Virus record (IMG/VR): IMGVR_UViG_3300031134_000639
Origin: a virus
Lineage: Duplodnaviria > Heunggongvirae > Uroviricota > Caudoviricetes
Length of the DNA stretch: 64,000 nt
Direction: 5' to 3' (one strand)
Made by a program: the position numbers and the translations under genes. Under the pieces are notes generated by a model. That model searched no databases. It saw nothing but the letters and a program-made list of their open reading frames with translations, and had not been told where the DNA came from. Below are positions 11,752 through 61,757 of this stretch, piece by piece; position 1 is the first letter of the stretch; each line of letters opens with the position of its first letter.

Positions 11752-11778
11752 AACTCCTATTTTATCATACTTTTGAGG

Positions 11779-13127: not shown

Positions 13128-13212
13128 AGCTATATGATACCAGAAAAAGGTTACCAAAGCAAGCTAACAACTGTTAGAACACAACACTAAGCAAGCATGC
13201 TACAATAGTCAA

Positions 13213-25896: not shown

Positions 25897-25908
25897 CCCG
25901 ATAGTAAT
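25897..25908 (+). promoter_or_regulatory. CCCGATAGTAAT conserved intergenic motif (candidate phage promoter), 31 nt upstream of CCA-enzyme ATG
   Basis: Same 11-12-mer recurs upstream of several operon starts (35961, 39736, 45152, 61746). Confidence 0.5.
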
Positions 25909-27460: not shown

Positions 27461-27876
27461 TGTTGAGGGGCATCTACTGGCCGATACCAGCAGAGACATT
27501 AAAGCTAGGTCCAGACACCTGAATGTCGCTCTGAACAGTGTGATCTACAGGAGCGATTGAGAGTGTGGATGTAGCGATGAGTGTTGCAACACTGGCTTTA
27601 GTGAAGAAAGCAGCAATGATTTCCATGATTGTTTGTTGTCCTTTTCTGTGTTGTTGTTTGTGTTTGTGTGTGTACTCATATTGTACCACATAACACTGTC
27701 AAGAGGAAGAAAAACTTTTCTCAAAAACCTTGATTTTCCGGGGTTTTTGAGGGGATGGAATAAGTTTTTAGGTTTCCTACAACGTAACCTGGAAACTGTT
27801 GTTCAGACTAGTGATAACCACCAAATCTGAAACTAAATTAGAACCTAATCGTATCACATGTGAAAGTAAAAAGGAA

Positions 27877-34765: not shown

Positions 34766-35902
34766 TTGCTAAACCAGAAGCCATTATCAGCTGGGCAAGC
34801 TCGTGTTGACACAATAGAACACGTATGCTATTATTGTGATATTAGGTTTTATTATGAAAGTAGGCACAATTTGAGTGAAAAAGATTTAGCTGCTAAGCAG
34901 CGCGGAACCATCCTTGGTCTTGCCTACGGTGACGCCTGGGGATGGATTACTGAGTTCGCTAACTACAAGGAAACTCAGCGCGTTCGACCTGCCTTCCCAG
35001 CTGAAGCTATCGTCACTGACGACACTCAAATGTCCCTCTACGCGATGAACGCCATCCTTAATGATGTGTACCTGCGTAGCTCCAAGATTAAAGCTTTCGA
35101 CGCTGACCGCAGCGAAGCAAATGGTAACGCTGTGCGAATTGAGTTCGCTGAAGCGTTTATCAACTGGTACTACGACGAGGACAACACTCGCGCTCCTGGA
35201 GTGACCTGCATGGAGGCTCTGAAGAAGATTACGCTTCTTGACCTTGAGACTGGCCTTGAGGGAACCAACGAGTGGTCTAAGGGCTGCGGTGCTAACATGC
35301 GTAACCCATGGTTCGGCCTGCTTCCCTACGATGTTGACATGATTGCTGAGTTGAGCGTTATTCAGTCTTCAGTCACCCACAATAACCCTCTGGCTCTTTC
35401 TTCCTCAGCTATCACAGCGTTGGTCGTTCGCGGCCTTGTCAGCGGTGAGGTTACTCCCGGAGACAACAACGTTATGAACTACGCTATTGATATGACTGAG
35501 TACCTGATTCAGAATCCTTTTGATACACTCAACCTTGGTTACATGGATGGTCTGCTTCAGCTTAAAGAGTTCCTTATCGTCCAGAGGGATCTGACTCACG
35601 TACTTGATGACCTCGATGAGTCAACTGATATCTGTCACCTGTTCGGTGAAGGCAAGATTGCTGAGGAAGCACTCGCCCTCGCTATTGTTGCTGTTGACCG
35701 CTACCAGGATGATGTTATGAGCGGATACCGTCGTCTGGTTCACTCCTCAGGAGACACTGACAGTATCGCAGCTATCGCAGGTTCCTTCTTTGGCGCAGCG
35801 TACGGAGATAGTGTGTTCCCCACCGAATGGTTTGACCGTCTAGAGCCTCGCTACCAGAAAGAGCTATCCCTCGTTATCGGGGATGTGCAGGACCTGATCT
35901 AG
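34766..35902 (+). CDS. ADP-ribosylglycohydrolase (ARH/DraG-family); start uncertain (TTG at 34766 or TTG near 34873 preceded by GAAAGTAGG)
   Basis: ILGLAYGDAWGWITEF near the N-terminus, TDDTQMSLY, and C-terminal SGDTDSIAAIAGSFFGAAYG, all typical ARH metal-binding motifs. Confidence 0.7.
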   Translation: MLNQKPLSAGQARVDTIEHVCYYCDIRFYYESRHNLSEKDLAAKQRGTILGLAYGDAWGWITEFANYKETQRVRPAFPAEAIVTDDTQMSLYAMNAILNDVYLRSSKIKAFDADRSEANGNAVRIEFAEAFINWYYDEDNTRAPGVTCMEALKKITLLDLETGLEGTNEWSKGCGANMRNPWFGLLPYDVDMIAELSVIQSSVTHNNPLALSSSAITALVVRGLVSGEVTPGDNNVMNYAIDMTEYLIQNPFDTLNLGYMDGLLQLKEFLIVQRDLTHVLDDLDESTDICHLFGEGKIAEEALALAIVAVDRYQDDVMSGYRRLVHSSGDTDSIAAIAGSFFGAAYGDSVFPTEWFDRLEPRYQKELSLVIGDVQDLI

Positions 35903-35910: not shown

Positions 35911-35958
35911 TGCAAGTAGGGAGGCCACAACAGTAGTGTTGTGGCCTCCCTACTTGCA
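35911..35958. terminator. Perfect 21-bp stem hairpin (tgcaagtagggaggccacaac / gttgtggcctccctacttgca)
   Basis: Inverted repeat directly upstream of the CCGATAGTAAT motif. Confidence 0.7.
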
Positions 35959-35960
35959 TA

Positions 35961-35974
35961 AAACCGATAGTAAT
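35961..35974 (+). promoter_or_regulatory. AAACCGATAGTAAT motif, 33 nt upstream of the first ART gene
   Basis: Recurring motif; see 25897, 39736, 45152, 61746. Confidence 0.5.
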
Positions 35975-36003: not shown

Positions 36004-36969
36004 ATGTGTCGTACTAAGAAGTCGGGTGGGCGTAGATGCCCTCAACACACGGATCCTGTAAAACATGCCGCATATAATGCTCGTAGGCGAGAACTGTACG
36101 CCGAAAAGAAAGACTCTACAAAAGTTGAGTCTGAAGAATCAATAGTTATAGTAGACCATGATGATTCCGTAGACTATGGCTTCCTCCCATTAGACAAACC
36201 TCGTAAACCGTATAAGTTCTCCTCCAAGCTCGGTAAAACCTTTGCCAAAGATGCTAATGAGTTTGCTAAAGCAATTCAACCTGACTTTGATGTCGAACGT
36301 TGGAGACTCAGAAACATCTACCACGAAAACATTGCAACAGATGACCCAATCTACAATGAAGGTAGATTCGCTTTCCTTGAGTACACAGCGTCCAATTACG
36401 CTCTCATTGGTGTACGTTTGAACGGTAGAAACTTGAGTTCAAAAAGACATGACAATTTCAAGTTGACTAAAGACCAAGAAAATGAGCTTGACCGTAAGAT
36501 TGAGACACTTGATGAGCTTTTTACTAGAATAAGGCAGCCTTCGGAACCACGAACGCTGTATCGTGGCATGCAAGTGCCTGACACCGTAGAGCAAGAGAAC
36601 GTTGACAGCTGGCTAGAGAGTAAGTTCCCTGTAGGTGGTATTGTCTCGCAGAAGAATTATATGTCAACAAGTTTGAACCCTAAGATAGCAGCAGGTTTTT
36701 CCTACAGTGACCATAGTGACCCAAGAAAAGTAGCTCGTGCAGTCATTTTTGAGATAAGAACAACTGAGGGTGCTCCTCTGGGCCATGGAACATCCTCCTA
36801 CAAAGATATTGAAGCGGAAGTCCTCCTTCCACGCGACTTAAAACTGAAAGTTGTCAAACGAGAGACAAGAGCCTCACACACCATTGGATCTTTTTTGAAC
36901 CGAAAAAACCAAGTCAGCATCTCTACAGTAATTCAGTTAGTTGACGTAACAAATGAAGGAAAAATTTAA
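36004..36969 (+). CDS. ADP-ribosyltransferase paralog 1 (leader + variable region + R-S-E ART domain), 321 aa
   Basis: MCRTKKSGGRRCPQHTDPVKHAAYNARRRELYA; LYRGMQVP; YMSTSL; EAEVLLPRD; C-terminal VIQLVDVTNEG. Confidence 0.75.
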   Translation: MCRTKKSGGRRCPQHTDPVKHAAYNARRRELYAEKKDSTKVESEESIVIVDHDDSVDYGFLPLDKPRKPYKFSSKLGKTFAKDANEFAKAIQPDFDVERWRLRNIYHENIATDDPIYNEGRFAFLEYTASNYALIGVRLNGRNLSSKRHDNFKLTKDQENELDRKIETLDELFTRIRQPSEPRTLYRGMQVPDTVEQENVDSWLESKFPVGGIVSQKNYMSTSLNPKIAAGFSYSDHSDPRKVARAVIFEIRTTEGAPLGHGTSSYKDIEAEVLLPRDLKLKVVKRETRASHTIGSFLNRKNQVSISTVIQLVDVTNEGKI

Positions 36970-37856
36970 TGTGCCGCAGCAAAGAATTAGGCGGCAGGCG
37001 CTGTCCATCTCATACAGACCCAGCAAAACAGTCAGTCTATAATGCTCGCCGCCGCGAACTATATGCACAGCGTAAGCAGGCCCACAACATATCGTTTTTG
37101 AATTACAACACCGCCAAGCCATGGCTAAACGAAGACGATGATGCATACAAAACGTTTGTAGAAGAGGCTGATGCGTTTGCACGCAAGGTGAATCCCAACA
37201 TTAATACAACTCAATGGGATGATGATGAAATGATTTATATGGAACCAGTAACTGACGAGCAGGATGCTCTTATTCAATACAGCGGCGATGGCTATGAAAA
37301 TATCAATCAGTACCTTCGTGCCGGACAACCTAAAACTGATGTAGAACAAACTTTCAAGGTCAAGTTTGACGAATATCGCTCTGCGGCAGAAAACGCCAAT
37401 TTAGTAAAAAATATTGATTCAGCGTTGCTCAAAGCAATACCATCAGAAAAACCACGAGTACTTTATCGCTCTATTCGTGTGCCTCGCGGTGTACCATCTA
37501 GCCAGGCCTCACAATGGCTTAGAGAAAACTTCTCAGTAGGATCTGTCGTCAGCAACCCTGGTTACATGTCAGTTTCTTTGAACGCAGGGCTAGCCAACAG
37601 TATCTTTGGTGAAAGTAGTACGCAACAAACGGCAATCACCATGGAAATCTTAAGTAAAAAAGGCGCTCCGCTTGGAGCAGGCATGTCCAAAACAGCTTAC
37701 AGCGAAACTGAACTTCTTTTACCGCGTGACGTTAAACTAAAAGTGGTCTCTTTAGAAGAAGACGTAGATTACACAGTGATGTTCCGAAACAAAGAGAAAA
37801 CAACCAAACGCACTGTTATACGTCTCATAGACGAAAATGATGAAGGAGAAAACTGA
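36969..37856 (+). CDS. ADP-ribosyltransferase paralog 2, 295 aa
   Basis: MCRSKELGGRRCPSHTDP...; LYRSIRVP; YMSVSL; ETELLLPRD; start overlaps upstream stop (TAATG). Confidence 0.7.
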   Translation: MCRSKELGGRRCPSHTDPAKQSVYNARRRELYAQRKQAHNISFLNYNTAKPWLNEDDDAYKTFVEEADAFARKVNPNINTTQWDDDEMIYMEPVTDEQDALIQYSGDGYENINQYLRAGQPKTDVEQTFKVKFDEYRSAAENANLVKNIDSALLKAIPSEKPRVLYRSIRVPRGVPSSQASQWLRENFSVGSVVSNPGYMSVSLNAGLANSIFGESSTQQTAITMEILSKKGAPLGAGMSKTAYSETELLLPRDVKLKVVSLEEDVDYTVMFRNKEKTTKRTVIRLIDENDEGEN

Positions 37857-38731
37857 TGTGCAGACCCAAAGAGAATGGTGGGAGACGCTGTCCTCAACAC
37901 ACTGACCCTGTAAAACACGCCGCATATAACGCACGTCGTAGAGAACTGTACGCTGCTTCCAAAAAAGCGGACTCATCTTCTGCTCTGACTAGTCTTTTCC
38001 CTGAGATGGGTGTTCCCATACAACCACTAAATGAAAACGTACGTCTTGCGTTCATTGCTGATGCTCGTAAGCTGACTAAAGCGCTCCTGCCGGATTTTGA
38101 TGAAAACACCTGGGCGCTTACAGAGAGTGTTATAACCTCAGACCATCCTAAATATGCTAACCCTGCTAGCCATGAAAGCTTGCGTTACTATACAGATATT
38201 GGCTACACTCATCTTAGAGCTAATCTAGAAGGCAGAGGTTATGCTGCTCCTGAAACACTTGAATGGGAACATCGTGTCATAGACTCTATTGACAAAGCTT
38301 TCGAACAGGCATCCCCACCTGATGAGCCTCGCCTACTATATCGTGGTATGAGAATTCCTAGTGAACATGAGCCTGACCAGTTCATTAATGAGAACTTCCC
38401 TGTTGGAGGTGTTGTCAGCCAGAAGTCTTATATGTCAACAAGTCTGCTACCTTCGGTATCTAAGTCATTCGGGGATGGATTTGGGCACGGTGAAGAGCGA
38501 ATTGCTAGGTCAGTAGTTTTCCAGATTGTTAGCAAACAGGGTATAGCTCTGGGAAAAGGAACCTCCGAAATGTCGGACAGGGAAAAGGAAGTTCTGATGC
38601 CTCGTAATGCGAGATTCAAAGTAGTTAGCGTAGATAAAGGCGTTGACTTCAGCTATACTCCGTTTGGTTACCCTAATGAGAAACTGAAGCGCACGTTAAT
38701 TCGTTTGGTTGATGCGTCAGACGAAGAATAG
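37856..38731 (+). CDS. ADP-ribosyltransferase paralog 3, 291 aa
   Basis: MCRPKENGGRRCPQHTDP...; LYRGMRIP; YMSTSL; EKEVLMPRN; TGATG overlap. Confidence 0.75.
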   Translation: MCRPKENGGRRCPQHTDPVKHAAYNARRRELYAASKKADSSSALTSLFPEMGVPIQPLNENVRLAFIADARKLTKALLPDFDENTWALTESVITSDHPKYANPASHESLRYYTDIGYTHLRANLEGRGYAAPETLEWEHRVIDSIDKAFEQASPPDEPRLLYRGMRIPSEHEPDQFINENFPVGGVVSQKSYMSTSLLPSVSKSFGDGFGHGEERIARSVVFQIVSKQGIALGKGTSEMSDREKEVLMPRNARFKVVSVDKGVDFSYTPFGYPNEKLKRTLIRLVDASDEE

Positions 38732-38760
38732 ACTAAGTTCACTCCTATCAGGTTTAAGAC

Positions 38761-38782
38761 AAAACCGATAGATATGAGTAAT
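38761..38782 (+). promoter_or_regulatory. Variant motif AAAACCGATAGATATGAGTAAT (CCGATAG...TAAT with 7-nt insertion)
   Basis: Upstream of ART paralog 4. Confidence 0.35.
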
Positions 38783-38807
38783 ACGTTGTGTGACAAGAAA
38801 GAACTTC

Positions 38808-39698
38808 ATGTGTAGACCTAAAGAGTTGGGCGGCAGACGCTGTCCTCAGCATACCGACCCAGTAAAACACGAAGCTTACAACGCCCGTCGCCGCGAACTA
38901 TACGCAGAATCCAAAAAAGTAAGCTCTTCATCTAACCCACTTGACCTCTTCCCTAAAATGGGTGCTGTCATAGGAGCCTTAGACGAAAGTGTGCGTCTAA
39001 CTTTTTTATCTGATGCCCGTAAGTTGACCAAATCACTGATGCCAGATTTTGATGAAGAGCAGTGGAAGGACACAGAAGACGTTATTAGTCCAAGTAACCC
39101 AAAATATATCAACCCCACAAATCATGACGCTCTAAGATACTACACAGAACTAGGCTTCATCACTCTCAGAAATCATTTAGAGCAAAATGATGAGGCTCCT
39201 ACTGAAAATAAAGACTGGCATGACCGCGTTGTATCAGCAATAGACAGCGCTTTTGAACAAGCGGACCCACCAGAAGAACCTCGCCTGCTTTATCGTGGTA
39301 TGAGAATCAGACAAAACCATGCAGACAAGGATAGCATCAGCAAATACGTTGCTGACAACTTCCCTGTGGGAGGAGTAATCAGTCAGAAAAACTACATGTC
39401 AACAAGTTTAAGCCCTTCAGTTTCAACTTCATTTGGTGATGGTTTTGGTGGCACTCCAGAAGAGCGTGACTCCAGGTCTGTACTCTTTCAGATTGTCAGC
39501 AAGCAGGGTATTGCTTTAGGTAAAGGAACCTCTGACATGGGCGACAGAGAGAAAGAAGTCCTGATGCCGCGCAACGCTCGTTTTAAAGTTGTTAGTGTAG
39601 ATGAAGGAGCAGATTTCAACTACAATATTTACGGTGACACACCTGTTGAGCTTAAGCGTACTATAATTCGTTTGGTTGATGTGTCGGACGAAGACTGA
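38808..39698 (+). CDS. ADP-ribosyltransferase paralog 4, ~296 aa
   Basis: Start chosen at MCRPKELGGRRCPQHTDP to match paralogs (the ORF track begins 6 codons earlier). LYRGMRIR; YMSTSL; EKEVLMPRN; close paralog of gene 3. Confidence 0.75.
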   Translation: MCRPKELGGRRCPQHTDPVKHEAYNARRRELYAESKKVSSSSNPLDLFPKMGAVIGALDESVRLTFLSDARKLTKSLMPDFDEEQWKDTEDVISPSNPKYINPTNHDALRYYTELGFITLRNHLEQNDEAPTENKDWHDRVVSAIDSAFEQADPPEEPRLLYRGMRIRQNHADKDSISKYVADNFPVGGVISQKNYMSTSLSPSVSTSFGDGFGGTPEERDSRSVLFQIVSKQGIALGKGTSDMGDREKEVLMPRNARFKVVSVDEGADFNYNIYGDTPVELKRTIIRLVDVSDED

Positions 39699-39735
39699 TA
39701 ATAGGTCCAGATAAACCGGTGTCCCCTTAAGATAG

Positions 39736-39750
39736 AAAACCGATAGTAAT
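39736..39750 (+). promoter_or_regulatory. AAAACCGATAGTAAT motif, 34 nt upstream of ART paralog 5
   Basis: Recurring motif. Confidence 0.5.
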
Positions 39751-39779
39751 AATTGGAGTAAACATCTTTTGGAGATAGC

Positions 39780-40634
39780 ATGTGCCGTAGCAAGGAGTTG
39801 GGTGGGCGTCGTTGCCCTCAATACACCGACCCTGCAAAGCGTGCCGCATATAATGCTCGTCGTAGAGAACTATACGCTAACCGGAAAAAAGGTCAGCAAG
39901 TAGACTATATCCCTCTAGACCAGCCTAGACACAAGTTCCATGAAAGCGACTCACCTGAGTGGCAGCGTTATAAGAAGGAAGCTAAAGCCTTCAAAGAAAA
40001 ACTTTCTGCTTTAGAGGGCTGGAAGACCTATAAGAAGAGGTTGCACGATTACACAGACTTTGAGTACATCAACATACGTATCTTCCTAAATGGCTATGAC
40101 GCCACCGACATTAAAGCTAGCCCTATGTCATATGACCAAAAAGAGCAGAAAACGATTGCTAAGAGCATCAAGGTTTTAGATGAGGTTCTAACTCTTGCTG
40201 ATAAACCAGATGAGCCTAGACTTCTCTACCGTGCGATGATGGTTCCTTTTAGCATCAAAGACAAGCAGATGGAAGGTTGGATGAGAGAGAACTTCCCAGT
40301 CGGTGGTGTTGTAAGTCAACTGTCTTATATGTCCACCTCTCATGACCCACACAGGCTAATCAATAACTTCGGTGGAGTACGTAACCAGCATAGAGCTATC
40401 ATGTTTGAGATAATTAGCAAACAAGGAGCCGTATTAGGCAACGGAACATCCGAGTATGGTTCTTTAGAATCAGAAGTGCTTATGCCTAGGGAGGCTAAGT
40501 TCAAAATAGTTTCAGTTGATGAAAACGTAGACTATCAAGTATTTGCTCAAGACGAGAACAACGGTGAAGGATCCATGAGTAGTGTCAAAAGAACAGTCAT
40601 CCGCCTAATGGACGTAGACGGGGAGGATAGCTAA
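39780..40634 (+). CDS. ADP-ribosyltransferase paralog 5, 284 aa
   Basis: MCRSKELGGRRCPQYTDP; LYRAMMVP; YMSTSH; ESEVLMPRE. Confidence 0.7.
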   Translation: MCRSKELGGRRCPQYTDPAKRAAYNARRRELYANRKKGQQVDYIPLDQPRHKFHESDSPEWQRYKKEAKAFKEKLSALEGWKTYKKRLHDYTDFEYINIRIFLNGYDATDIKASPMSYDQKEQKTIAKSIKVLDEVLTLADKPDEPRLLYRAMMVPFSIKDKQMEGWMRENFPVGGVVSQLSYMSTSHDPHRLINNFGGVRNQHRAIMFEIISKQGAVLGNGTSEYGSLESEVLMPREAKFKIVSVDENVDYQVFAQDENNGEGSMSSVKRTVIRLMDVDGEDS

Positions 40635-41584
40635 TGTGTCGTACTAAAGAATTGGGTGGGCGTCGTTGCCCTCAGCACACTGACCCTGTGAAACATGCTG
40701 CGTACAATGCACGTCGTAGAGAGCTATATGCAGCTCAAAAAAGCATTATCAAAAATGATGACCAAGCTTCTTTAGAGTCTCGTTTCCTTGGGCCTGACCA
40801 GAGAAGAAAACCGGCTGGTGAGCAAGAACATCTTAGCTTTGTAAAAGATACAGAAACGTACCGCGATAGTTTGGCAGAGTACGAGAAGACCACCTACTCC
40901 AACGACTATGCTGAGTGGAGAGCCAGCCCAAAGAAAACTGACCAGTGGGGTGGCTCACCTCGTGCTGCCCTCAGACACTATACGGAGATGGGCTACAGTG
41001 ATGTACGCAACTACCTGAACGGTTTCAGCATGGAAGTGTACCGTGACGAAGACGAAGCGCAGAAAGCTGGTGTGGAAGTGAAACCGCAGGACAACGCTGA
41101 CATGGCAGGCTTTGTTCGCATGATGGACAAAGTAATTTCTCTTGCCCCCAAACCTGCGGAACCACGCATGCTGTACCGTGGAATTGACCCACCTTCTACC
41201 GCTATGGGTAAAGAGGCTGAATGGCTTAAAGAGAAGTTCCCCATTGGAGGAATAGTAAGCCAGAAATCCTACATGTCTACAAGCTTAGAACCCTCTATAG
41301 CTGCTGGAAGCTTTAGCCTCACAGAGAACTCTGTTGTTATGGAAATTCTTTCTAAAGAAGGTGCAGCCCTTGGTGTAGGCCAGTCAACATGGGGTCTTCA
41401 GGAAAGTGAGGTCGTCTTACCACGCGATGCCAAACTTAAAGTTGTCGCAGTGTACCAGGACGTAAAATACGGTTACACTAAAGTCACAAGAGAAATGGAC
41501 GGCGAAGTTCTAGCAGAAAAAGATGCTGAAGACAAAAGAACAATCATCCAGGTAATCCATGTTACAGATGAGGATGAAAGCTAA
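40634..41584 (+). CDS. ADP-ribosyltransferase paralog 6, 316 aa
   Basis: MCRTKELGGRRCPQHTDP; LYRGIDPP; YMSTSL; ESEVVLPRD; TAATG overlap. Confidence 0.75.
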   Translation: MCRTKELGGRRCPQHTDPVKHAAYNARRRELYAAQKSIIKNDDQASLESRFLGPDQRRKPAGEQEHLSFVKDTETYRDSLAEYEKTTYSNDYAEWRASPKKTDQWGGSPRAALRHYTEMGYSDVRNYLNGFSMEVYRDEDEAQKAGVEVKPQDNADMAGFVRMMDKVISLAPKPAEPRMLYRGIDPPSTAMGKEAEWLKEKFPIGGIVSQKSYMSTSLEPSIAAGSFSLTENSVVMEILSKEGAALGVGQSTWGLQESEVVLPRDAKLKVVAVYQDVKYGYTKVTREMDGEVLAEKDAEDKRTIIQVIHVTDEDES

Positions 41585-42450
41585 TGTGCCGCCCTAAAGA
41601 ATTGGGCGGGCGTCGTTGCCCTCGACACACTGACCCTGTAAAGCATGCTGCATATAACGCCCGCCGCAGAGAGCTATATGCAGCATCCAAAAATACAAGT
41701 TCTCTGCCTAGCCCGGTTGAGCTTTCTTCTGCCACACAGTATGAACATTTGTTTGTACTTGAGGATAAAAACACGGTTGAAACAATTGAAAAAACGTTCA
41801 AAGGAAGACTTGGATACATAGCGGAAGGTAACGCTCTATATGATGCTCTACAGGAGCAGGATGACTCTGAGAAACTAAGAAAATCTTTGCTTTACTACAC
41901 ATCTCACGGTTATACAGACTTGCGTAAATACTTGAATGCTTCCTCTGAAGACAAAGAAGACTTTGACGATGAAGCTATGGACGACTTAGTTAATGATTTA
42001 GACAAATCAATCAGCTTAGCTGAGACCAAAAGAGAATATAGAGCAGTCTATCGTGGAATCAGAGTCGACGAAACAGTAACTGGCGAGAAAAGCTTTGACG
42101 TGTGGCTGCATGAGGCATTCCCTATTGACGGTGTAGTATCGCAGAAAAGCTATATGTCAACAAGTTTGTCTCCTGCTAAAGCAATAAACATATTCGGCTT
42201 TGGTTCTGTCACAGAGTCACTACTTTTTGAGATAGTCACAAAAAGAGGGGCCGCTTTAAATGAGAAGACCTCTGTTATGGGTACAAAAGAGTATGAGATT
42301 TTGCTACCAAGGGAAGCTAAATTTAGGGTCGTGAATGTTCAAAAAGATATTACTCTAAAACTGCATTCTTCTCCTGGCGATAACGCTTTAGTTCACCCAA
42401 TTCAAAAGACTGTTGTCCAGCTAATTGATGTAACTGATGAGGAAAGCTGA
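41584..42450 (+). CDS. ADP-ribosyltransferase paralog 7, 288 aa
   Basis: MCRPKELGGRRCPRHTDP; VYRGIRVD; YMSTSL; EYEILLPRE. Confidence 0.75.
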   Translation: MCRPKELGGRRCPRHTDPVKHAAYNARRRELYAASKNTSSLPSPVELSSATQYEHLFVLEDKNTVETIEKTFKGRLGYIAEGNALYDALQEQDDSEKLRKSLLYYTSHGYTDLRKYLNASSEDKEDFDDEAMDDLVNDLDKSISLAETKREYRAVYRGIRVDETVTGEKSFDVWLHEAFPIDGVVSQKSYMSTSLSPAKAINIFGFGSVTESLLFEIVTKRGAALNEKTSVMGTKEYEILLPREAKFRVVNVQKDITLKLHSSPGDNALVHPIQKTVVQLIDVTDEES

Positions 42451-43283
42451 TGTGTCGCACTAAAGAACTTGGTGGGCGTCGTTGCCCGTCACACAGCAAC
42501 CCTCAGCTTGTCGCTGCTCGTAATGCCCAGAGACGACAGAAGTATGCAGCCAGTAAGAAATCAGCTGTTGCGCCTGCCCAACAGTATTCGTTTCAAGTGG
42601 ACGAAGACGAACTAGTTACTTCTGTAGACATGTCAGGAGATGTGTGGGACTCATACATCTCTGATGGCGAAAAGTTTCTTACCAAAATCCAGGAGAGTGA
42701 ACAAAAAGTTGAGATGATAGATGCTCTGCTTGAATACACTCACAAAGGCTACCGCCCTCTTAGGGATCATCTAAATAGGTCTGAAGAAGAGCAGGCAGGT
42801 AACGAGTACATGGTTGGGTTAACAAAAAACTTGGATGACGCTTTACATTTAGCTGAGCCACCAAGTGAGCCAAGGACGTTGTTCAGGGGGATGGAAATAC
42901 CAACAGATGAGGTGACTGATGATGAAATAGATGGCTGGTTGGACTCGCATTTTCCTGTAGACGGAGTCTTCTCCCAGAAGAGCTTCATGTCAACAACCTT
43001 GTCAATGTACAAAGCCGCTTACGTTTTTGGTAACGCTCGGGGTCCTAAAAGATCAGTCATCTTTGAGATCATTAGTAAGCAAGGTGCACCACTTGGAACA
43101 GGAACATCCGATTTAGATACAAAAGAGTTAGAGATTCTGATGCCACGTGAAGCCCGCTTCAAAGTGGTTGGCATAAAGAAGAACATTACTTTTGACCTTG
43201 CTGCTTCCTCTCACCCTGATGCATTTCCTGATGAAATAACTAGAACTATCATCCAAATTGTCGACGCTGAAGAAAAGAGCTAA
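42450..43283 (+). CDS. ADP-ribosyltransferase paralog 8, 277 aa
   Basis: MCRTKELGGRRCPSHSNP; LFRGMEIP; FMSTTL; ELEILMPRE. Confidence 0.7.
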   Translation: MCRTKELGGRRCPSHSNPQLVAARNAQRRQKYAASKKSAVAPAQQYSFQVDEDELVTSVDMSGDVWDSYISDGEKFLTKIQESEQKVEMIDALLEYTHKGYRPLRDHLNRSEEEQAGNEYMVGLTKNLDDALHLAEPPSEPRTLFRGMEIPTDEVTDDEIDGWLDSHFPVDGVFSQKSFMSTTLSMYKAAYVFGNARGPKRSVIFEIISKQGAPLGTGTSDLDTKELEILMPREARFKVVGIKKNITFDLAASSHPDAFPDEITRTIIQIVDAEEKS

Positions 43284-43285
43284 CC

Positions 43286-44203
43286 ATGTGTAGAACCGGT
43301 GGAAGACGATGCCCATCCCACAGCGACCCCACAATGGTTGCAGCACGTAATGCCCGCAGGCGAGAGCAGTACTCAAACAGAAATCAAGGGTACAGCACCA
43401 TGGTCGATGAAGAGAACCCTGTAGCTGGTATGTTGAACCATGCCAGTATGGGTTTGTACGGCAAAAAGTCAGCTGGTTTTACACCTTTAGATGAAGGATA
43501 CGAACCCTTTGATGAGTACAGTGAAGACTGGGAAGAATACAAGGAAGACGCTAAACTGTTCCTTAGGACACTACGAGGAGAGTACGGCAAAAAGTTTTAT
43601 GACCTGCAAACGTCTTTGTACAGTTACACTGCCGGTGACTACAACGACGTGCGTGACTACTTAAATGGCTACAGAATAAGAGCCACCTCTAAAGAAGAGA
43701 TGGAAAAACCTTTTGAGAAGAGAACCATAAAGATGGTTAAACGTATCATCTCTGACTTAGACGGTGCTCTCAAGCTAACTACCCCACCAGCATCACCTCG
43801 CAAAGTCTATCGTGGAATGCAGGTGCCTGTACGAGTTCCAGCTGAAGACGCTGCCACCTGGGTTGCAGAGAATTTCACTCCAGGGAAAGTTGTCTCCCAG
43901 AAGTCCTACATGTCAACAACTTTGAACCCTGCTAAAGCAAACTTCTTCTCAGGAACAAAAAATGGAGTCATTTTTGAAATCCTAACTAAAGAAGGCGCTG
44001 TTTTAGGTCAGGGAACATCACAGTACAACGAGATGGAAACAGAAGTCCTGATGCCTCGTGAAGCTAAATTCAAAGTAGTCAGTGTAACAGTTGATGCAGA
44101 AGTCAAACTGAAGCCATCTAAAGGCTATAACAGTCTAAATGGAGTGCAAACAACTAAGAAAACAATCATCCGTATGGTGGATGCAGGAGAGGAAAACAAC
44201 TGA
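43286..44203 (+). CDS. ADP-ribosyltransferase paralog 9 (short-leader subtype MCRTGGRRCPSH), 305 aa
   Basis: VYRGMQVP; YMSTTL; ETEVLMPRE. Confidence 0.75.
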   Translation: MCRTGGRRCPSHSDPTMVAARNARRREQYSNRNQGYSTMVDEENPVAGMLNHASMGLYGKKSAGFTPLDEGYEPFDEYSEDWEEYKEDAKLFLRTLRGEYGKKFYDLQTSLYSYTAGDYNDVRDYLNGYRIRATSKEEMEKPFEKRTIKMVKRIISDLDGALKLTTPPASPRKVYRGMQVPVRVPAEDAATWVAENFTPGKVVSQKSYMSTTLNPAKANFFSGTKNGVIFEILTKEGAVLGQGTSQYNEMETEVLMPREAKFKVVSVTVDAEVKLKPSKGYNSLNGVQTTKKTIIRMVDAGEENN

Positions 44204-45135
44204 TGTGTAGAACAGGTGGAAGACGGTGCCCGTCACACAGCAACCCGGAGGCTGTAAGTGCCCGTAACGCCCGTCGTAGGGCTGCCTACGGCTCCAAGAA
44301 AGCTTCAAGCTCCACGGAGACGCCAACTGGCTCTGAGGGCGTTAGAATCGCTTCTGAGCTTCTGAAGAAGAACGCTTGGATGTTTGATGACTACTCACAG
44401 GTAAAGTATCGCTTCGATGACAGCCACGATAACTGGAGTCAATACCTTGAAGATGCAGATGAGTTCTATGAGATCTTGAAATCTAAGGCACCTGAAGGCG
44501 AATCCTCACCACACATTAGAGTGCTCAAAAACTACTACACTGGTGAAGGCTACCGTGGTATTCGTGATTACTTAAACGATTATGACGTTGCGAACGGCAA
44601 GCCGCGAGAGTTTGACCCTAAGTATGAGGAAGAAGACCGAGCAGCTGAGAAAGAAGAGATGGATGAGATTATACCGCTTCTAGATGAAGCAATTAGTCTA
44701 GCTCCAAAAAGTGAGTTCCGTCGTCAACTGTACCGTGGCATGAATTTGCCTTCAAACATAAAAAGTGAAGATGTTAGCAGTTGGATTCATGAGAACTTCC
44801 CTGTTGGTGGTGTTGTAAGTCAGAAATCGTACATGTCAACATCATTGAGTGCTGACAGGGCTGTGCTTAACTTCACTAACCGCTGGCCGCGTATGCATGA
44901 CCGGACAGTTGTCTTTGAGATCATCTCCAACGAAGGTGCAGTCTTGGGAGATGAAACTGCTTTACATGGTTCAAAGGAAGCAGAGGTGCTTATGCCTCGC
45001 AACAAGAAGTTCAGGGTCCTGTCAATTGATGAGAACGTGACATACACAACATCTGGCTTTTCTGAAGGTTTCTCCGATGCTCCAGAGGACACAAGCCCAA
45101 CACAAAAAACTGTTATCCGAATGATTGATGCTTAA
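44203..45135 (+). CDS. ADP-ribosyltransferase paralog 10 (short-leader subtype), 310 aa
   Basis: MCRTGGRRCPSHSNP; LYRGMNLP; YMSTSL; EAEVLMPRN; TGATG overlap. Confidence 0.75.
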   Translation: MCRTGGRRCPSHSNPEAVSARNARRRAAYGSKKASSSTETPTGSEGVRIASELLKKNAWMFDDYSQVKYRFDDSHDNWSQYLEDADEFYEILKSKAPEGESSPHIRVLKNYYTGEGYRGIRDYLNDYDVANGKPREFDPKYEEEDRAAEKEEMDEIIPLLDEAISLAPKSEFRRQLYRGMNLPSNIKSEDVSSWIHENFPVGGVVSQKSYMSTSLSADRAVLNFTNRWPRMHDRTVVFEIISNEGAVLGDETALHGSKEAEVLMPRNKKFRVLSIDENVTYTTSGFSEGFSDAPEDTSPTQKTVIRMIDA

Positions 45136-45151
45136 TTTGGATGGGCAGTAG

Positions 45152-45164
45152 CCCCGATAGTAAT
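45152..45164 (+). promoter_or_regulatory. CCCCGATAGTAAT motif, 31 nt upstream of ART paralog 11
   Basis: Recurring motif. Confidence 0.5.
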
Positions 45165-45190
45165 AACTGGAATTAGACTTTGGAGTTAAC

Positions 45191-46054
45191 ATGTGCCGTA
45201 CTGCTGGAAGACGCTGCCCGTCTTATACCGACCCTAAGCTTATAGCAGAACGCAATGCTCGTCGCAGGGCCGCATACAAAGTATCGCACAAAACCAAAGC
45301 TGAACCTAAAAGGCTTGACCCGACAACGTTGTTTAAACCTTTTGACGTTTACCGTGAAGAAATAATTCCGGAAACACCCGAATACAGAGAGTACATTCAA
45401 GCCGGAAAGGACTTCTCAAACAGCATCACTCCGCAGGAGTCAGACGCTGTATACGGCTATACTGACATGGACTACAGCATAATCCGAGACTACCTTAATG
45501 GGTACGAAATGGAGTCATCAACAGTCGTGCCTTTAACTCTTCAGGAATCACGTCAACAGGAAGTTGACAACACTATCGAAACAATAGACTCAGCCTTGAA
45601 GAAAGCCGATCCACCAGCGTCTCCTAGGACTCTTTACAGAGGCATGATGATACCCATGAAAGTAAAACCAGCAGACATGAAAGCATGGGTTGAAGATAAT
45701 TTCCCTATTGGCGGTGTGATAAGCCAAAAAAGTTATATGTCAACAAGTTTAAGCACGCAGAAAGCACTTGGCTTCGCTGGTTCATATGATGCTTCCCCTA
45801 GAAGTGTTCTACTAGAAATTGTTTCTTCTTCCGGCGCTGTACTCAACAGCCAGACTTCTTCATACGGCGAGATGGAGAGAGAGGTCTTGCTTCCCAGAGG
45901 TAAACGATTCCAGGTTGTGTCAGTAACCACTGATGCAGAGATTAACTATAAGATGTATGCGCACAAAAAGCACTACGAACGAACAACAACTGGAATAAAA
46001 ATTATTCAGCTGATTGATTTGGATGAACTAGAGGGAGATTCTGCTGAAGCATAA
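45191..46054 (+). CDS. ADP-ribosyltransferase paralog 11 (short-leader subtype), 287 aa
   Basis: MCRTAGRRCPSYTDP; LYRGMMIP; YMSTSL; EREVLLPRG. Confidence 0.75.
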   Translation: MCRTAGRRCPSYTDPKLIAERNARRRAAYKVSHKTKAEPKRLDPTTLFKPFDVYREEIIPETPEYREYIQAGKDFSNSITPQESDAVYGYTDMDYSIIRDYLNGYEMESSTVVPLTLQESRQQEVDNTIETIDSALKKADPPASPRTLYRGMMIPMKVKPADMKAWVEDNFPIGGVISQKSYMSTSLSTQKALGFAGSYDASPRSVLLEIVSSSGAVLNSQTSSYGEMEREVLLPRGKRFQVVSVTTDAEINYKMYAHKKHYERTTTGIKIIQLIDLDELEGDSAEA

Positions 46055-46083
46055 GTTCCGTAGAAAATAGTCTTGCAGATGCA

Positions 46084-46137
46084 GAATAAGTTATAGGCCC
46101 CAACTAAAAAATTCTAGTTGGGGCCTATAACTTATTC
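46084..46137. terminator. Perfect 23-bp stem hairpin (gaataagttataggccccaacta / tagttggggcctataacttattc)
   Basis: Longest palindrome in the window; separates the ART operon from the convergent minus-strand small gene. Confidence 0.75.
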
Positions 46138-46344
46138 TTTCAAGCTTTTAAGATACTTGTCTCCAAGCACCCAAGGACAGTTTGTGCTGTGGCAGTCGTA
46201 ACTTTCGTCACAGTAGCCATACCGGCCTTCTTTGCCGCTTCCGCCGCAAAAAACGCAACCGCCCATTTCATCCTGGTTGATTACTTCACCGACTAAGCCG
46301 TTAAGCAGGTCAATGAGTTCCTTCTTTTCTTTCTTGTTTAACAT
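46132..46344 (-). CDS. Small Cys-rich protein (putative zinc-binding), 70 aa
   Basis: GGCVFCGGSGKEGRYGYCDESYDCHSTNCPW, 7 Cys plus His in 30 residues. Confidence 0.4.
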   Translation of the reverse strand: MLNKKEKKELIDLLNGLVGEVINQDEMGGCVFCGGSGKEGRYGYCDESYDCHSTNCPWVLGDKYLKSLKE

Positions 46345-46457
46345 ATGTTCTCCTTTTTCTCTATTAATTCGTACAAGAGTTTATCTAGAGTGAGTCTCAT
46401 ATGTTGTGTTGCTTGACATCAGTTTAGCACACATAGAACATTGTTGCAACCACAAAT

Positions 46458-46498
46458 AAATGAGGCCCCAACATTCTCTGTCAGGGCCTCATTTATTC
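46458..46498. terminator. Hairpin aaataaatgaggccc-...-gggcctcatttatt
   Basis: Inverted repeat. Confidence 0.55.
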
Positions 46499-46505
46499 GC
46501 TTAGT

Positions 46506-46787
46506 CTATGTGACTGAGCTTTCGTCTTCTTCATCAATTGTTTTCAAACCTGGTTCTGGATCTACTTTGTCTTCATGTGGGGCAGGTTGTTCTAAGGTGA
46601 ACTCATCACCGTCACTAACAAAGTAGTCGCTTCGGTCGTTTTCCTTTTCGGTGGCTGCACCAAGGTCAACTTCGTTTGCGCTGTCTGCTGTTGTGTCTGT
46701 TTCTAGTACTGTGTTTGTCATAATATTTTCCTCCAAAAATGTTGACGTACTCTCCTTATATCTGCAAAACACCCAACTGTGGTACAA
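46506..46787 (-). CDS. Small highly acidic hypothetical protein 93 aa
   Basis: ORF; D/E-rich. Confidence 0.35.
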   Translation of the reverse strand: MYHSWVFCRYKESTSTFLEENIMTNTVLETDTTADSANEVDLGAATEKENDRSDYFVSDGDEFTLEQPAPHEDKVDPEPGLKTIDEEDESSVT

Positions 46788-46895
46788 AAGTTTACTGATA
46801 TAGCTGGGAAACAGTCCCCTCAGACTGGCGCTATAAGCCTAGAAAAACCTGGTCAAACCGATATACATGGTACAATAAACAGACACAAATAACCT

Positions 46896-48311
46896 GTGTA
46901 CAAGAACTTACATGAAGGACAAAAGTTGGCTAAGAGAGCGTTTCGTTGCAGTAACTGTAATAACATCACCACAAAGTGGATGGGTATCTGCGATGAGTGT
47001 GGAGCATCCGGAACAATCGATGAGGACGCATCAGCACTAGTTACACTCAACGCTCCCAAGCCTGGTGTGGCATCAGCTGCAACCCCAGGAATTCGCGCCG
47101 CACGGGCAGCTAGCGGTAAAGCTCCTCAGCGCGTCGGAGATGTGAAAGCAGACTCCTTCAAACGTTTCAGCACAGGGTTGAAAGAGTTTGACCGTGTGCT
47201 CGGTGGAGGTCTAGTACCAGGAGGTGTTCTGCTTCTAGCAGGTGTGCCAGGTGTTGGTAAGTCAAGTATCCTTCTGTCAACAGCGAAAGCTTTAGCTGAC
47301 CAAGGCAAAAAAGTACTTATCGTCTCTGGTGAGGAAACCGAAGCTCAGATTGCTTCTCGTGCCCACAGAACAAATGCTTTATCTGAAAACCTGTATCTTC
47401 TCTCCGAGTCAAGCCTGCCAAACGCAGTTGCCCACATTTACGACATGCAACCTGATATTGTTATTGTTGACTCCATCCAGACTATGGTTTCAGAAAACAG
47501 TGAAGGACGCCATGGTAGCCCAACGCAGATGAACGAAGTGGCAAGCGAACTAACTAACCTTGCTAAGAGCATGAGCATCCCAATGCTCCTCATCGGACAC
47601 GTTACCAAAGACGGTGCCATCGCTGGTCCGAGGACAGTTGAGCACCTTGTGGACGTTGTACTCTACTTTGAGGGCACAAGCGACTCTCCTCTACGTCTTC
47701 TTCGTGGAGTTAAAAACCGTTACGGTGCGGTAGATGAAATTGGGTGTTTTGAGCACACAGAAGATGGGCTTATTGAAGTCTCTGACCCCTCAGGCTTCTT
47801 CCTCAACGAACACGATGACAACGTAGCTGGTTACGCTACTTCAATCCTTGTTGAAGGTAACCGTGCGCTCCCCATTGAAATTCAGGCTTTGGTAACAACA
47901 ACTAACCTTCCGAACCCAAGAAAAATCAGCAACGGTCTAGATCATGGGCGTGTGATGATGGTGCAGGCTATTCTTGAGAAGCACGGGCACCTACGCCTAC
48001 AGGATAAAGATGTTTATGTGTCAACCTCAGGTGGTTTGCTCACTAAGGACTCCTCCATTGACCTTGCTATTGCAGCTGCCATCATCTCCTCACACGACAG
48101 CATCGCAACTCCCGACCATTCAGTATTCCTAGGTGAGACCTCTCTTACAGGTGAGATTCGCCAGCCGAGGTCCTACAACAAGCGAGTAAACGAAGCTAAG
48201 CGACTAGGGTTCAACAATATTTTTGCTCCTTCCAAAGAAGATGCTGACAGCGTAAAAAACATTGTGGCTCTGGTCAAAGCTTTGCGTCCAAGTGTTCGTG
48301 ACCGCCGCTGA
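46896..48311 (+). CDS. radA: DNA repair protein RadA/Sms
   Basis: N-terminal C4 zinc finger CSNCNNITTKWMGICDECG, Walker A GVPGVGKSSILL, KNRYG motif VKNRYGAVDEIGCFE, C-terminal Lon-like domain. Confidence 0.9.
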   Translation: MYKNLHEGQKLAKRAFRCSNCNNITTKWMGICDECGASGTIDEDASALVTLNAPKPGVASAATPGIRAARAASGKAPQRVGDVKADSFKRFSTGLKEFDRVLGGGLVPGGVLLLAGVPGVGKSSILLSTAKALADQGKKVLIVSGEETEAQIASRAHRTNALSENLYLLSESSLPNAVAHIYDMQPDIVIVDSIQTMVSENSEGRHGSPTQMNEVASELTNLAKSMSIPMLLIGHVTKDGAIAGPRTVEHLVDVVLYFEGTSDSPLRLLRGVKNRYGAVDEIGCFEHTEDGLIEVSDPSGFFLNEHDDNVAGYATSILVEGNRALPIEIQALVTTTNLPNPRKISNGLDHGRVMMVQAILEKHGHLRLQDKDVYVSTSGGLLTKDSSIDLAIAAAIISSHDSIATPDHSVFLGETSLTGEIRQPRSYNKRVNEAKRLGFNNIFAPSKEDADSVKNIVALVKALRPSVRDRR

Positions 48312-48323
48312 TAGACATATTCT

Positions 48324-49181
48324 ATGTGTAGAACCGGTGGTAGACGTTGTCCAGCTTACAGTGACCCTCAGGCTATAGCCGACCGTAATGCAAGACGCAG
48401 AAAAGCTTATGCTGCTAAGAAAAGTGTTGTTCAGCCTCCACTGGAGATGGCCTTTCCTAGCCTAAGTGAAGTACGTAAAGTTGTTGGTTCTGAAGACCGC
48501 GAGTTGCGTGGTAAGAAGCTTGAAGAAGAACTTACTAGCTCTGAAGTAGAAGCAGTCGGGTACTACACAGAATCAGGTTACATAACTGTGCGAAATGAGT
48601 TAGTGGACTGGGAGTTAATCCAGGATTTGCAAGATAATGAAGACGTAGAAGAGCCTGATGAGGACATAAACGTTATCATAGACCATCTAGATAATGTGAT
48701 AGCTAAAGCCATCCCACCCCAAAATCCTGTGCCATTATATCGTGGAATTAATGTACCTATCTCAGTGCATTTAGACGAAGTTGATAATTGGGTTGATGCG
48801 AAATTCCCTATTGGTGGAATAATTCAGCAGGATAACTTCATGTCAACTTCATCAGCGCCGCAAACTGCGGTAGGCTTCAGTCAGCCAATAGATTCTATGT
48901 TTGGCAACTACGAAGATGAAAACGAAATGCGAGACATAATGTCTCAAGAACGCAGCATTGTTATGGAAATTTTAAGTAAAAAAGGTGCTGTTATCCTACC
49001 TTCTTTAGCTGGTGGAAGTTACGATGAGCAGGAAACCTTGCTGCCAAGAAATGCACGACTCAAAATTGTTGGTGTGCACAAGAAACAATCTTATTCATAT
49101 ATGACAAGATTCAGGCCCATCGACCCAGAAATAGCCATGGTTGTAAACCGTACTGTAATACAGGTAGTTGACGCAGACTAG
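48324..49181 (+). CDS. ADP-ribosyltransferase paralog 12 (short-leader subtype), 285 aa
   Basis: MCRTGGRRCPAYSDP; LYRGINVP; FMSTSS; EQETLLPRN; RTVIQVVDAD. Confidence 0.7.
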   Translation: MCRTGGRRCPAYSDPQAIADRNARRRKAYAAKKSVVQPPLEMAFPSLSEVRKVVGSEDRELRGKKLEEELTSSEVEAVGYYTESGYITVRNELVDWELIQDLQDNEDVEEPDEDINVIIDHLDNVIAKAIPPQNPVPLYRGINVPISVHLDEVDNWVDAKFPIGGIIQQDNFMSTSSAPQTAVGFSQPIDSMFGNYEDENEMRDIMSQERSIVMEILSKKGAVILPSLAGGSYDEQETLLPRNARLKIVGVHKKQSYSYMTRFRPIDPEIAMVVNRTVIQVVDAD

Positions 49182-58890: not shown

Positions 58891-58920
58891 GCTTACTTAA
58901 GACAAGAAAGGAACCCCGTA

Positions 58921-59784: not shown

Positions 59785-59806
59785 TACTAGACCAAAGGAA
59801 ACTAAA

Positions 59807-61745: not shown

Positions 61746-61757
61746 GCCGATAGTAAT
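61746..61757 (+). promoter_or_regulatory. GCCGATAGTAAT motif upstream of nrdHIE
   Basis: Recurring motif; ~125 nt upstream of the nrdH ATG. Confidence 0.4.

Follow-up and report, generated by a model that had tools for sequence, protein, structure and literature searches.

Why would a single genome carry dozens of toxin-type ADP-ribosyltransferase genes, nearly all of which begin with the same short N-terminal sequence? This question is raised by a 64,000-nucleotide stretch of DNA (IMGVR_UViG_3300031134_000639; the whole stretch is called the window below, and positions are counted from its first letter). The window encodes 13 mono-ADP-ribosyltransferases (ARTs), and most of these genes form one long array. 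A leader of about 30 residues, here called the tag, is found at the start of almost all of the proteins. The reading that we favor, at a probability of roughly 55%, is that a giant mobile element linked to Actinomycetota encodes about 44 tagged ARTs of the R-S-ExE class in four arrays, that the tag serves to deliver them, and that one ADP-ribosylhydrolase (ARH) acts as their eraser.

Organization of the ART genes

Eleven plus-strand genes (g1 to g11) stand in tandem at 36004..46054, and a twelfth (g12) lies at 48324..49181, starting 12 nt after radA (46896..48311). These coordinates, given in a preliminary description of the window, were all reproduced by the list of open reading frames (ORFs). 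The common architecture proposed there for proteins of about 280-320 aa also holds. In a 12-way alignment, the proteins of 277-321 aa consist of a leader, a poorly conserved stretch, and a catalytic core. The count of 12 was too low, since the window holds a 13th ART of 302 aa on the minus strand (18778..19686; PF03496 at 9.7e-11). This copy has the same R/STS/ExE core and another N-terminus, MTATKMPDGSTCYTGPTCKKH, in which a Cys..Cys..His arrangement is again seen.

The Pfam family PF03496 (ADPrib_exo_Tox) matches every copy tested, with 30-69 bits against a cut-off of 23.4. The direct test covered eight of the 12 array copies and the 13th ART. Matched in this way were g1 (36004..36969, 321 aa, 1.6e-11, with R, STS and ExE), g2 (36969..37856, 295 aa), g3 (37856..38731, 291 aa), g5 (39780..40634, 284 aa), g6 (40634..41584, 316 aa), g8 (42450..43283, 277 aa), g11 (45191..46054, 287 aa, 4.4e-19), and g12 (285 aa). 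The other four were assigned from the alignment and are flagged PF03496 in the precomputed annotation of an identical public contig: g4 (38808..39698, 296 aa), g7 (41584..42450, 288 aa), g9 (43286..44203, 305 aa), and g10 (44203..45135, 310 aa). The start of g4 was placed at ATG 38808, which is backed by the leader alignment; the ORF lister begins at GTG 38790. The leader of g9 has the short form MCRTGGRRCP.

Translational coupling along the array, as first proposed, applies to part of it. Six of the ten internal junctions are 1-nt start/stop overlaps, but one is a 2-nt gap and three are spacers of 55-81 nt. At the overlap junctions, the Asp and Glu codons of the acidic C-terminal tail supply a Shine-Dalgarno-like GAGGA. 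The tail itself, which had been described as conserved, is present in most copies, but in the 12-way alignment it is short or missing in g10 and g12, with g10 listed as having none.

Copy number in the genome and its relatives

The window is 100% identical to the ENA contig k141_624373 (ERZ27247443; 624,949 bp), in which its first base is at about position 478,123, and to a 663,129-bp JGI contig. On k141_624373, a second array of 11 ART genes (locus L034, 3376..13495) lies at about 459.1-469.2 kb, and a third of seven genes (locus L035, 4230..11038) at about 377.6-384.4 kb. A fourth array of 13 genes with different flanks (locus L032, 1055..13614) is found at 396-409 kb of a collinear relative of 511,644 bp. 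The genome-wide set used below therefore comprises 44 ARTs, namely 13 from the window, 11 from L034, seven from L035, and the 13 of L032 on the relative's contig. The "dozen" ARTs mentioned at first were a large undercount: about 44 are found per genome, distributed over four arrays.

The leader stands at the start of 42 of the 44 ARTs. The exceptions are the 13th window copy with its different N-terminus and L035_6, for which the gene call is truncated at the 5' end and a longer ortholog exists in L036. The family also extends to other contigs. A related 68.7-kb contig (L037) carries at least 18 tandem, leader-tagged ART copies of about 395 aa, and a 727,572-bp contig carries the ARH together with three ART copies of 370-512 aa. 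Genes for a GNAT acetyltransferase and prepilin-type (N_methyl) proteins flank or interrupt the L034, L035, L032, and L037 arrays. Window genes recur on contigs of 511,644, 624,949, 663,129, 884,011, and 885,359 bp from different samples; the two contigs of about 885 kb agree closely in size.

Identity of the enzymes

The ART assignment is supported by several comparisons. When a profile of 72 ART sequences was compared with the PDB, Vis (1.2e-14), SpvB, VIP2, Certhrax, HopU1, iota-Ia, CDTa, and Tre1 were recovered. PHROG 802, "Alt-like RNA polymerase ADP-ribosyltransferase", matches the array ARTs with E-values down to 5.5e-13, and PHROGs 595 and 16619, which are ART-carrying head proteins, match array proteins over the ART part only. 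The AlphaFold model of g11, the single ART copy modeled, has a pLDDT of 91.5 and a pTM of 0.83. It displays the ART fold, a helical lobe followed by a split beta-sandwich with the NAD pocket. Foldseek aligned this model with Certhrax, Plx2A, VIP2, CDTa, Vis, and C3 at E-values of 1e-11 to 1e-9; for Certhrax, Plx2A, C3, and Vis, the probability was 1.00 and the TM score on the target was about 0.65-0.68. Among predicted viral structures (BFVD), the neighbors of g11 are phage ARTs, many of them fused to MuF, portal, or minor-capsid proteins, and they also include models of the T4-type Alt "RNA polymerase ADP-ribosylase". The preliminary description had suggested an R-S-E ART of the C3/iota/Alt type and a profile and structure check of it. 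PF03496, the PDB profile matches, and the structural comparison all agree with this assignment, and the C-terminal domains fall in the ART fold rather than in a non-ART one.

The catalytic residues point in the same direction. The alignment that had been proposed for the R, STS, and ExE positions revealed that the Arg, the Ser, and both Glu residues (R187, S221, E270, and E272 in gene-1 numbering) are invariant in all 12 array copies. All 44 members of the genome-wide set keep R150, S184, E229, and E231. STS is less strict at its middle position, with T in 39, A in four, and V in one of the 44; g2 reads SVS. The proteins are thus, as judged from their sequences, R-S-ExE mono-ADP-ribosyltransferases of the C3/VIP2/iota/Alt type with apparently intact active sites, and they are presumably active as enzymes. 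The ExE form is typical of arginine-modifying ARTs (PMC8120803). Arginine would therefore be the likely acceptor, and a role in host takeover may be proposed.

Conservation, variation, and selection

Conservation along the protein is uneven. The leader is the segment with the lowest entropy over the 44 paralogues (0.35-1.4 bits), followed by the catalytic strands (1.0-1.6 bits). The most variable segments, with 2.5-3.4 bits, are the linker plus helical lobe (aa 31-130), the ADP-ribosylating turn-turn (ARTT) loop (aa 221-230), and the C-terminal hairpin (aa 251-270). The aromatic or hydrophobic residue ahead of ExE in the ARTT loop can be Y, W, M, L, or H; this position reads the substrate in C3, iota, and ScARP (PMC7827354). 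Both the ARTT loop and the helical lobe are sites of substrate reading in R-S-E ARTs (PMC7827354). The middle region (about aa 31-130) had been called hypervariable. It is indeed variable, but it is not a separate domain: it comprises the linker and the helical N-terminal lobe of the ART fold. This region holds a conserved YT..GY..R.YLN motif and is modeled as helices of that fold, and the Pfam domain boundary begins at about residue 65-100.

The idea that the copies diversified likewise stands in part. It is in the ARTT loop and the helical lobe that most of the variation lies, but the divergence is ancient, and purifying selection acts on the copies. The copies form a star-like tree and have a median pairwise identity of 36%. 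Adjacent genes are often sisters, as in g3/g4 (67% identity; g3 is a recent duplicate of g4), g7/g8, and L034_5/6 (73%), which indicates old tandem duplications as the source of the copies. Between strains that differ by a dS of about 0.02-0.27, the pooled pN/pS over ten ART genes is 0.10-0.11. This ratio of about 0.1 implies that every ART copy is maintained under purifying selection, and it gives no sign of current hypermutation. The ARH, radA, and NERD genes are held even tighter than the ARTs, with a dN/dS of at most 0.02 between strains.

Could the copies simply be redundant or decaying duplicates, produced by gene-dosage amplification or on the way to pseudogenes, without individual functions? 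Tandem duplication is clearly the mechanism by which the family grew, and g2 is dispensable in some strains, being absent from three close relatives. However, no frameshifts or stops were seen, and the copies keep a between-strain pN/pS of about 0.1 each despite a median identity of 36%. The invariance of the catalytic residues in 44 of 44, together with this ratio, rules out pseudogenes or decay, and we regard redundancy as a whole as very improbable indeed.

Gene g12 is a deeply diverged allele between strains, with 75% amino acid identity, a dS of 1.39, and a dN/dS of 0.10; its flanking genes have a dS of 0.03-0.08. The presence or absence of g2 and the old, swapped allele of g12 between near-identical flanks (in comparison with L026, L027, and L028) suggest cassette exchange among related elements.

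The N-terminal tag

The tag combines Met-Cys-Arg, a Gly-Arg-Arg-Cys-Pro knuckle, and an Arg-rich helix, NARRRxxY. In the 12-way alignment, 14 residues are invariant (M1, C2, R3, G9, R10, R11, C12, P13, P18, N25, A26, R28, R29, and Y32), which bears out the conserved leader MCR..GGRRCP...NARRR of the preliminary description. A degenerate DNA pattern for the leader has eight matches in the window and 0.00 in 100 shuffles. Synonymous sites in the leader are saturated (pS 0.77) and pN is 0.15-0.21. The leader is therefore kept by selection on the peptide, and not by gene conversion or as a DNA or RNA element; gene conversion is ruled out by the pS of 0.77. A Sec, Tat, or lipoprotein signal is likewise ruled out, as the leader has no hydrophobic segment.

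The tag is not confined to ARTs. When its profile was run with HMMER against 1.84 billion representatives, 193 proteins were found at E <= 1e-3, nearly all of them matched from residue 1. Among 87 new leader-tagged representatives, 65-67 are PF03496 ARTs. Other cargo includes ART-PolyVal, a Zeta toxin, acidic coiled-coil proteins, and a family of about 280 aa (GGLWTSPG...WTDW...WD.DSTVWL). In the window itself, the leader MCQPQSEGGRRCNGH begins a nucleotidyltransferase of the CCA-adding/poly(A) polymerase family (25939..27411, plus strand), whose catalytic head domain begins only at residue 99. A degenerate leader, MCRNRPGPRCTDHS, begins a 247-aa coiled-coil protein (34009..34752, plus strand) that has no ART domain and no Pfam or PHROG family. 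The leader-tagged proteins thus consist of a constant N-terminal module and interchangeable toxin domains.

A further leader-tagged type occurs in replicons of Gordonia, Prescottella, Rhodococcus, and Dietzia. Outside this type, the C-terminal domain of the Gordonia and Rhodococcus protein occurs at the C-terminal end of MuF-like minor capsid proteins in Streptomyces and Microbacterium phages. It has been proposed that MuF fusions bring toxins into the cell along with the DNA, and ARTs make up 14% of them (PMC5576092). ART-PolyVal derives from injected polyvalent proteins (PMC9503650). It is mainly this parallel in MuF-linked cargo that leads us to read the tag, by analogy, as a possible address for delivery or packaging. 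The tagged proteins of about 340 aa on Mycobacteriales replicons are encoded at L013 7092..8111, L014 4840..5847, and L039 12001..12972, the last on a 331-kb plasmid of Rhodococcus pyridinivorans. Their genes adjoin dnaG, mihF, and a clamp-like gene, and the RefSeq gene call begins downstream of the leader.

The tag could also be a small metal- or nucleic-acid-binding module that docks enzymes on RNA, DNA, or a ribonucleoprotein, in which case the ARTs would act on nucleic acids or on proteins bound to these, such as the ribosome, RNA polymerase, or tRNA-handling enzymes, and would not be delivery cargo. The same tag on a CCA-adding/poly(A) polymerase-family enzyme fits this idea, as do the arginine-rich helix NARRRELYA and the position of the tagged Rhodococcus plasmid protein beside dnaG, mihF, and the clamp-like gene. 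Examples of R-S-E ARTs with DNA, tRNA, or rRNA as substrate have been described (PMC7827354, PMC8120803, PMC8661411), and the leader has a weak similarity to the zinc-binding SCA7 motif RCPQHTD, with a non-significant E-value of 1.1. However, the tag has no more than two invariant Cys residues, and many copies have Tyr, Ser, or Leu in place of the His, so that a classical four-ligand zinc site is not conserved. The nucleic-acid-modifying enzymes ScARP and pierisin use Q-x-E, whereas all 44 ARTs here have E-x-E (PMC7827354). Neither Pfam nor the PDB lends support to a docking module, and the cargo of ART, ART-PolyVal, and Zeta toxin is the spectrum of injected or secreted effectors. We consider docking unlikely and retain delivery by the tag as the preferred reading.

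The upstream ADP-ribosylhydrolase

An ARH had been mentioned in the preliminary description. Its gene is found immediately ahead of the array at 34766..35902 on the plus strand, where it encodes an ADP-ribosylglycohydrolase of the DraG/ARH1/Tri1 type (378 aa from TTG; PF03747 at E=3.7e-43) and ends 101 nt ahead of g1. Its relatives are called from a later start (343 aa). Its relatives in the PDB are MJ1187, DraG, ARH1, and Tri1 (6dre_A), of which DraG, ARH1, and Tri1 are Arg-ADP-ribose hydrolases (PMC8120803). Between strains, the ARH has a dN of 0.001 and a dS of 0.067. The placement of the ARH next to ARTs is kept in related strains and in the 727-kb relative.

The pairing is not one-to-one, and the context is not that of a secretion system. 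One ARH stands beside 12 ARTs here, no PAAR or Rhs domains were detected by Pfam in the tested window proteins, and no ARH lies beside the other three ART arrays. This ratio bears on the possibility that the ARTs are directed at the element's own host cell. In such an exclusion, abortive-infection, or addiction system, the ARTs would be toxins restrained by the ARH, and the host cell would die or be arrested upon superinfection or loss of the element. ART and ARH pairs do act as toxin-antitoxin modules, for instance those of the DraT/DraG type in Aeromonas phages (PMC9503650), the array is immediately preceded by the ARH gene, and genes with NERD domains are nearby. However, 44 diverged toxins with one antidote are unlike any known toxin-antitoxin or abortive-infection architecture, three of the four arrays have no adjoining ARH, and no PADLOC defense model matches any tested gene. 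Self-directed exclusion is quite improbable.

Transcription units

The array had been taken as one operon. It has at least four promoter-like heads and is bracketed by hairpins. A promoter-like motif, CCGATAGTAAT, lies at 35964..35974 on the plus strand, 29 nt upstream of the g1 ATG. Further copies are located at 39740..39750 (g5), 45154..45164 (g11), 25898..25908 (the leader-tagged CCA enzyme), and 61747..61757, and a variant is found upstream of g4 at 38765..38775. Each of the three 55-81-nt spacers thus carries the motif or a close variant. The window has seven matches against 0.94 expected, at 26-32 nt upstream of start codons, and the heads of sub-operons in all four arrays are preceded by the motif at 26-35 nt. 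CCGATAGTAAT is found almost only ahead of leader-tagged genes and probably acts as the promoter for a single class of genes, defined by timing or regulation.

Between the ARH gene and g1, an inverted repeat with a 20-bp stem (35912..35957, plus strand) forms a hairpin without a T tract. The tandem array is closed by a terminator-like hairpin with a 20-bp stem and a T-rich tail (46087..46134, plus strand). The motif-bearing spacers and the bracketing hairpins indicate a co-regulated set of several transcription units, and not a single operon.

Nature of the genome

The label "phage" of the preliminary description was not supported. No match to the region or to g11 was found by megablast and tblastn in 50,697 phage records (INPHARED). 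In IMG/VR, the family-profile scan returned only six distant ART matches with 28-34% identity, three matches to a degenerate DNA pattern of the leader were out of frame and due to chance, and the genome was not found. About 190 kb of sequence yielded no structural gene, and when 30 further window proteins were compared with PHROGs in search of virion genes, only an NlpC/P60 lysin-type domain was found. The neighboring genes are mostly ORFans: about three quarters have no Pfam or PHROG family, and the genes average about 200 aa. Those with recognizable products include genes for RNA repair and nucleotide metabolism of kinds typical of jumbo phages, such as RNA ligase, HAD_SAK_2, the CCA enzyme, PTH2, an aminoacyl-tRNA synthetase, NrdHIE, ThyX, dCMP deaminase, and NT5C.

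Is the genome that of a reduced cell, such as one that lives on Actinomycetota as an episymbiont or parasite? The ARTs would then be secreted or contact-delivered toxins that act against bacteria or manipulate the host, the tag a secretion signal, and the ARH a self-immunity protein as in Tre1-Tri1. A number of nearby genes suit a cell, including those for RadA, an NAD-ligase, a class II aminoacyl-tRNA synthetase, NrdHIE, ThyX, the CCA enzyme, flotillin, Asp23, YceI, an S26 signal peptidase, and several prepilin-type proteins. RadA is almost absent from genuine phage records, and the absence of the genome from IMG/VR is in line with this possibility. Tre1 is among the PDB relatives of the ARTs and Tri1 among those of the ARH, and a constant N-terminus with variable toxin cargo follows polymorphic-toxin logic (PMC12226406).

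Several observations are difficult to reconcile with a cell. No tRNA, rRNA, or other Rfam RNA is present in the window, and no tRNA was found in eight further, partly overlapping loci of about 165 kb. GTDB species representatives contain no member of the ART family, although dozens of pattern matches per genome would be expected; only leader-like N-termini in Gordonia and Prescottella were found there. The roughly three quarters of genes without a family, the short genes, and several multi-copy ORFan families also argue against it. The tag, lacking a hydrophobic stretch, is not a Sec, Tat, or lipoprotein signal, and there is no immunity gene for each toxin. A reduced cell is unlikely. The genome, with contigs from 625 kb to about 885 kb, most likely belongs to a megaphage or to some other mobile element of very large size. 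According to a June 2026 review, the largest phage genome has 735 kb (PMC13282480); if the element is a phage, the contigs of about 885 kb exceed this size.

The link to Actinomycetota comes from two sources. A DUF2637 protein (27799..28809, plus strand) matches only actinophages (521 records), and the tag occurs in replicons of the four genera named above, from Gordonia to Dietzia. A short FtsK/SpoIIIE-like ATPase is encoded at 56776..57492 (plus strand). Actinobacterial phages and conjugative elements typically encode DUF2637 and FtsK/SpoIIIE-like proteins, and the two proteins are clues to the host.

Other paralogous families surround the ARTs. A ten-member ORFan family of about 200 aa, with the motif DGGLTLPDGKTY...W...FPVKAR, is encoded by ten ORFs at 310..13157 on the minus strand. 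Its AlphaFold model (pLDDT 80) consists of a beta domain and a long helix, with no PDB match at E < 0.7 and no Pfam or PHROG family. Two minus-strand paralogues of about 300 aa (51716..52636 and 52753..53640) have identical first 38 residues, MPNPYHDSQGRFASRDELKGLVDQAYKDGDMSTYIRER, and diverge thereafter, with no Pfam or PHROG match. MPNPYHDSQGRFASRDELKGLVDQAYKDGDMSTYIRER may be a second kind of shared N-terminal module. Three tandem ORFan paralogues of about 290 aa (57991..60667, plus strand) share the motifs EHYSVP and YMEFITNG..ISKALLYVSPL.

Proposed mechanism

In the mechanism that we favor, the tag would be a common address through which various effector domains reach a single partner that they share. 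Its most plausible use would be packaging, or passage into a new host cell together with the element's DNA, in the way proposed for MuF fusions and T4 Alt. There, the variable helical lobe and the ARTT loop may point each paralogue at a different host protein, and this protein would receive ADP-ribose from NAD+ on arginine. The single upstream ARH could reverse or limit these modifications. The shared promoter-like motif would co-regulate the sub-operons.

Five points weigh against this mechanism. First, no capsid, portal, terminase, or tail gene occurs in the approximately 190 kb of genome read, and, with no match in INPHARED or IMG/VR, packaging into a virion has no direct support. Second, a reduced cell would likewise account for the full-length RadA, LigA, class II aminoacyl-tRNA synthetase, NrdHIE, flotillin, Asp23, and type IV pilin-like genes. 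Third, one ARH for about 44 ARTs, with a hairpin between the ARH gene and g1, means that tight toxin-antidote coupling is not evident. Fourth, the leader alone has no significant relative in Pfam or the PDB, and its constant features are the two Cys and the Arg-rich helix. Fifth, a Cys/Arg-rich tag would equally suit the binding of a metal or a nucleic acid.

Comparison with known systems

The T4 enzymes Alt, ModA, and ModB, which take part in host takeover, are of the same R-S-E catalytic class and fold family, and T4 likewise has several paralogues with different targets in one genome (PMC9503650, PMC8120803). Alt is delivered with the DNA (PMC9503650, PMC8120803). However, T4 has three copies (PMC8120803) in contrast to about 44 here. 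The array ARTs also differ in their size of about 290 aa with a 30-aa Cys/Arg tag and in their link to Actinomycetota rather than to a T4-like phage.

The best matches in both sequence and structure are the exotoxins C3, VIP2, iota, CDTa, Certhrax, Vis, and SpvB. They share the aromatic-Arg, STS, and ExE motifs, the ARTT loop, and the N-terminal helical lobe with the array ARTs. The exotoxins are secreted, act on eukaryotic targets (actin, Rho, and vinculin), and have signal peptides or binary-toxin adaptor domains. In contrast, the array ARTs have no signal peptide or B-component and are encoded in the genome of a mobile element.

MuF polymorphic toxins and polyvalent proteins also combine a constant N-terminal module with interchangeable effectors, and their delivery with DNA has been proposed (PMC5576092, PMC9503650). 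In fact, the tag and the MuF proteins of Streptomyces phages have one cargo domain in common. However, no MuF (SPP1 gp7) domain is present here; the constant module is a 30-aa peptide without MuF similarity. The tagged ARTs are small, single-cargo proteins of about 290 aa encoded in arrays of dozens, whereas MuF toxins are encoded by one gene beside the portal gene. Moreover, no small immunity ORF follows each ART gene.

In Tre1-Tri1 of the Serratia type VI secretion system and in DraT-DraG, an R-S-E ART adjoins a DraG-like ARH, as seen here, and both Tre1 (6drh_B) and Tri1 (6dre_A) were recovered in our searches. The present system differs in having one hydrolase for 12-44 ARTs, in lacking a PAAR, Rhs, or type VI context, and in the hairpin and promoter-like motif that separate the ARH gene from the array. 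Massive expansion of paralogues in a very large mobile genome is also seen in jumbo phages, for example in Bacillus phage G with about 35 zinc-ribbon copies (PMC7824862). Unlike these, the family expanded here is an enzyme, and all of its active sites are kept.

Implications

In conflicts between phages and their hosts and among bacteria, ADP-ribosylation is a first-line weapon, but T4, the textbook case, makes do with three enzymes. The literature searched, which included that on huge phages and Saccharibacteria, contained no report of an ART expansion comparable to this one. The arrays look like the largest ART-type arsenal of host-modifying enzymes among those that we found described. The enzyme class itself is well known; what appear to be new are the roughly 44 intact paralogues, the modular 30-aa tag, and the genome that carries them. 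This genome is notable in itself, since it is ORFan-rich, has a size of at least 625 kb and possibly about 885 kb, and was not found in the phage, viral-contig, and genome collections searched.

The finding may reach further, and we offer this extension tentatively. The tag could be a previously unrecognized effector address by which ARTs, Zeta toxins, ART-PolyVal, a tRNA nucleotidyltransferase, and unknown enzymes are co-delivered with DNA by giant Actinomycetota-associated elements. If these elements are phages, each genome would carry about 44 target-specialized arginine ARTs, and this would be by far the largest viral arsenal for post-translational modification known.

About 44 diverged copies with intact active sites under purifying selection would imply dozens of distinct substrates. 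The arrays would then give a ready-made panel for new targets of ADP-ribosylation and new rules of specificity in Gram-positive or actinobacterial cells. The tag, reused on unrelated effectors, may define a new route of delivery or docking, and it provides a sequence handle for finding effectors in metagenomes.

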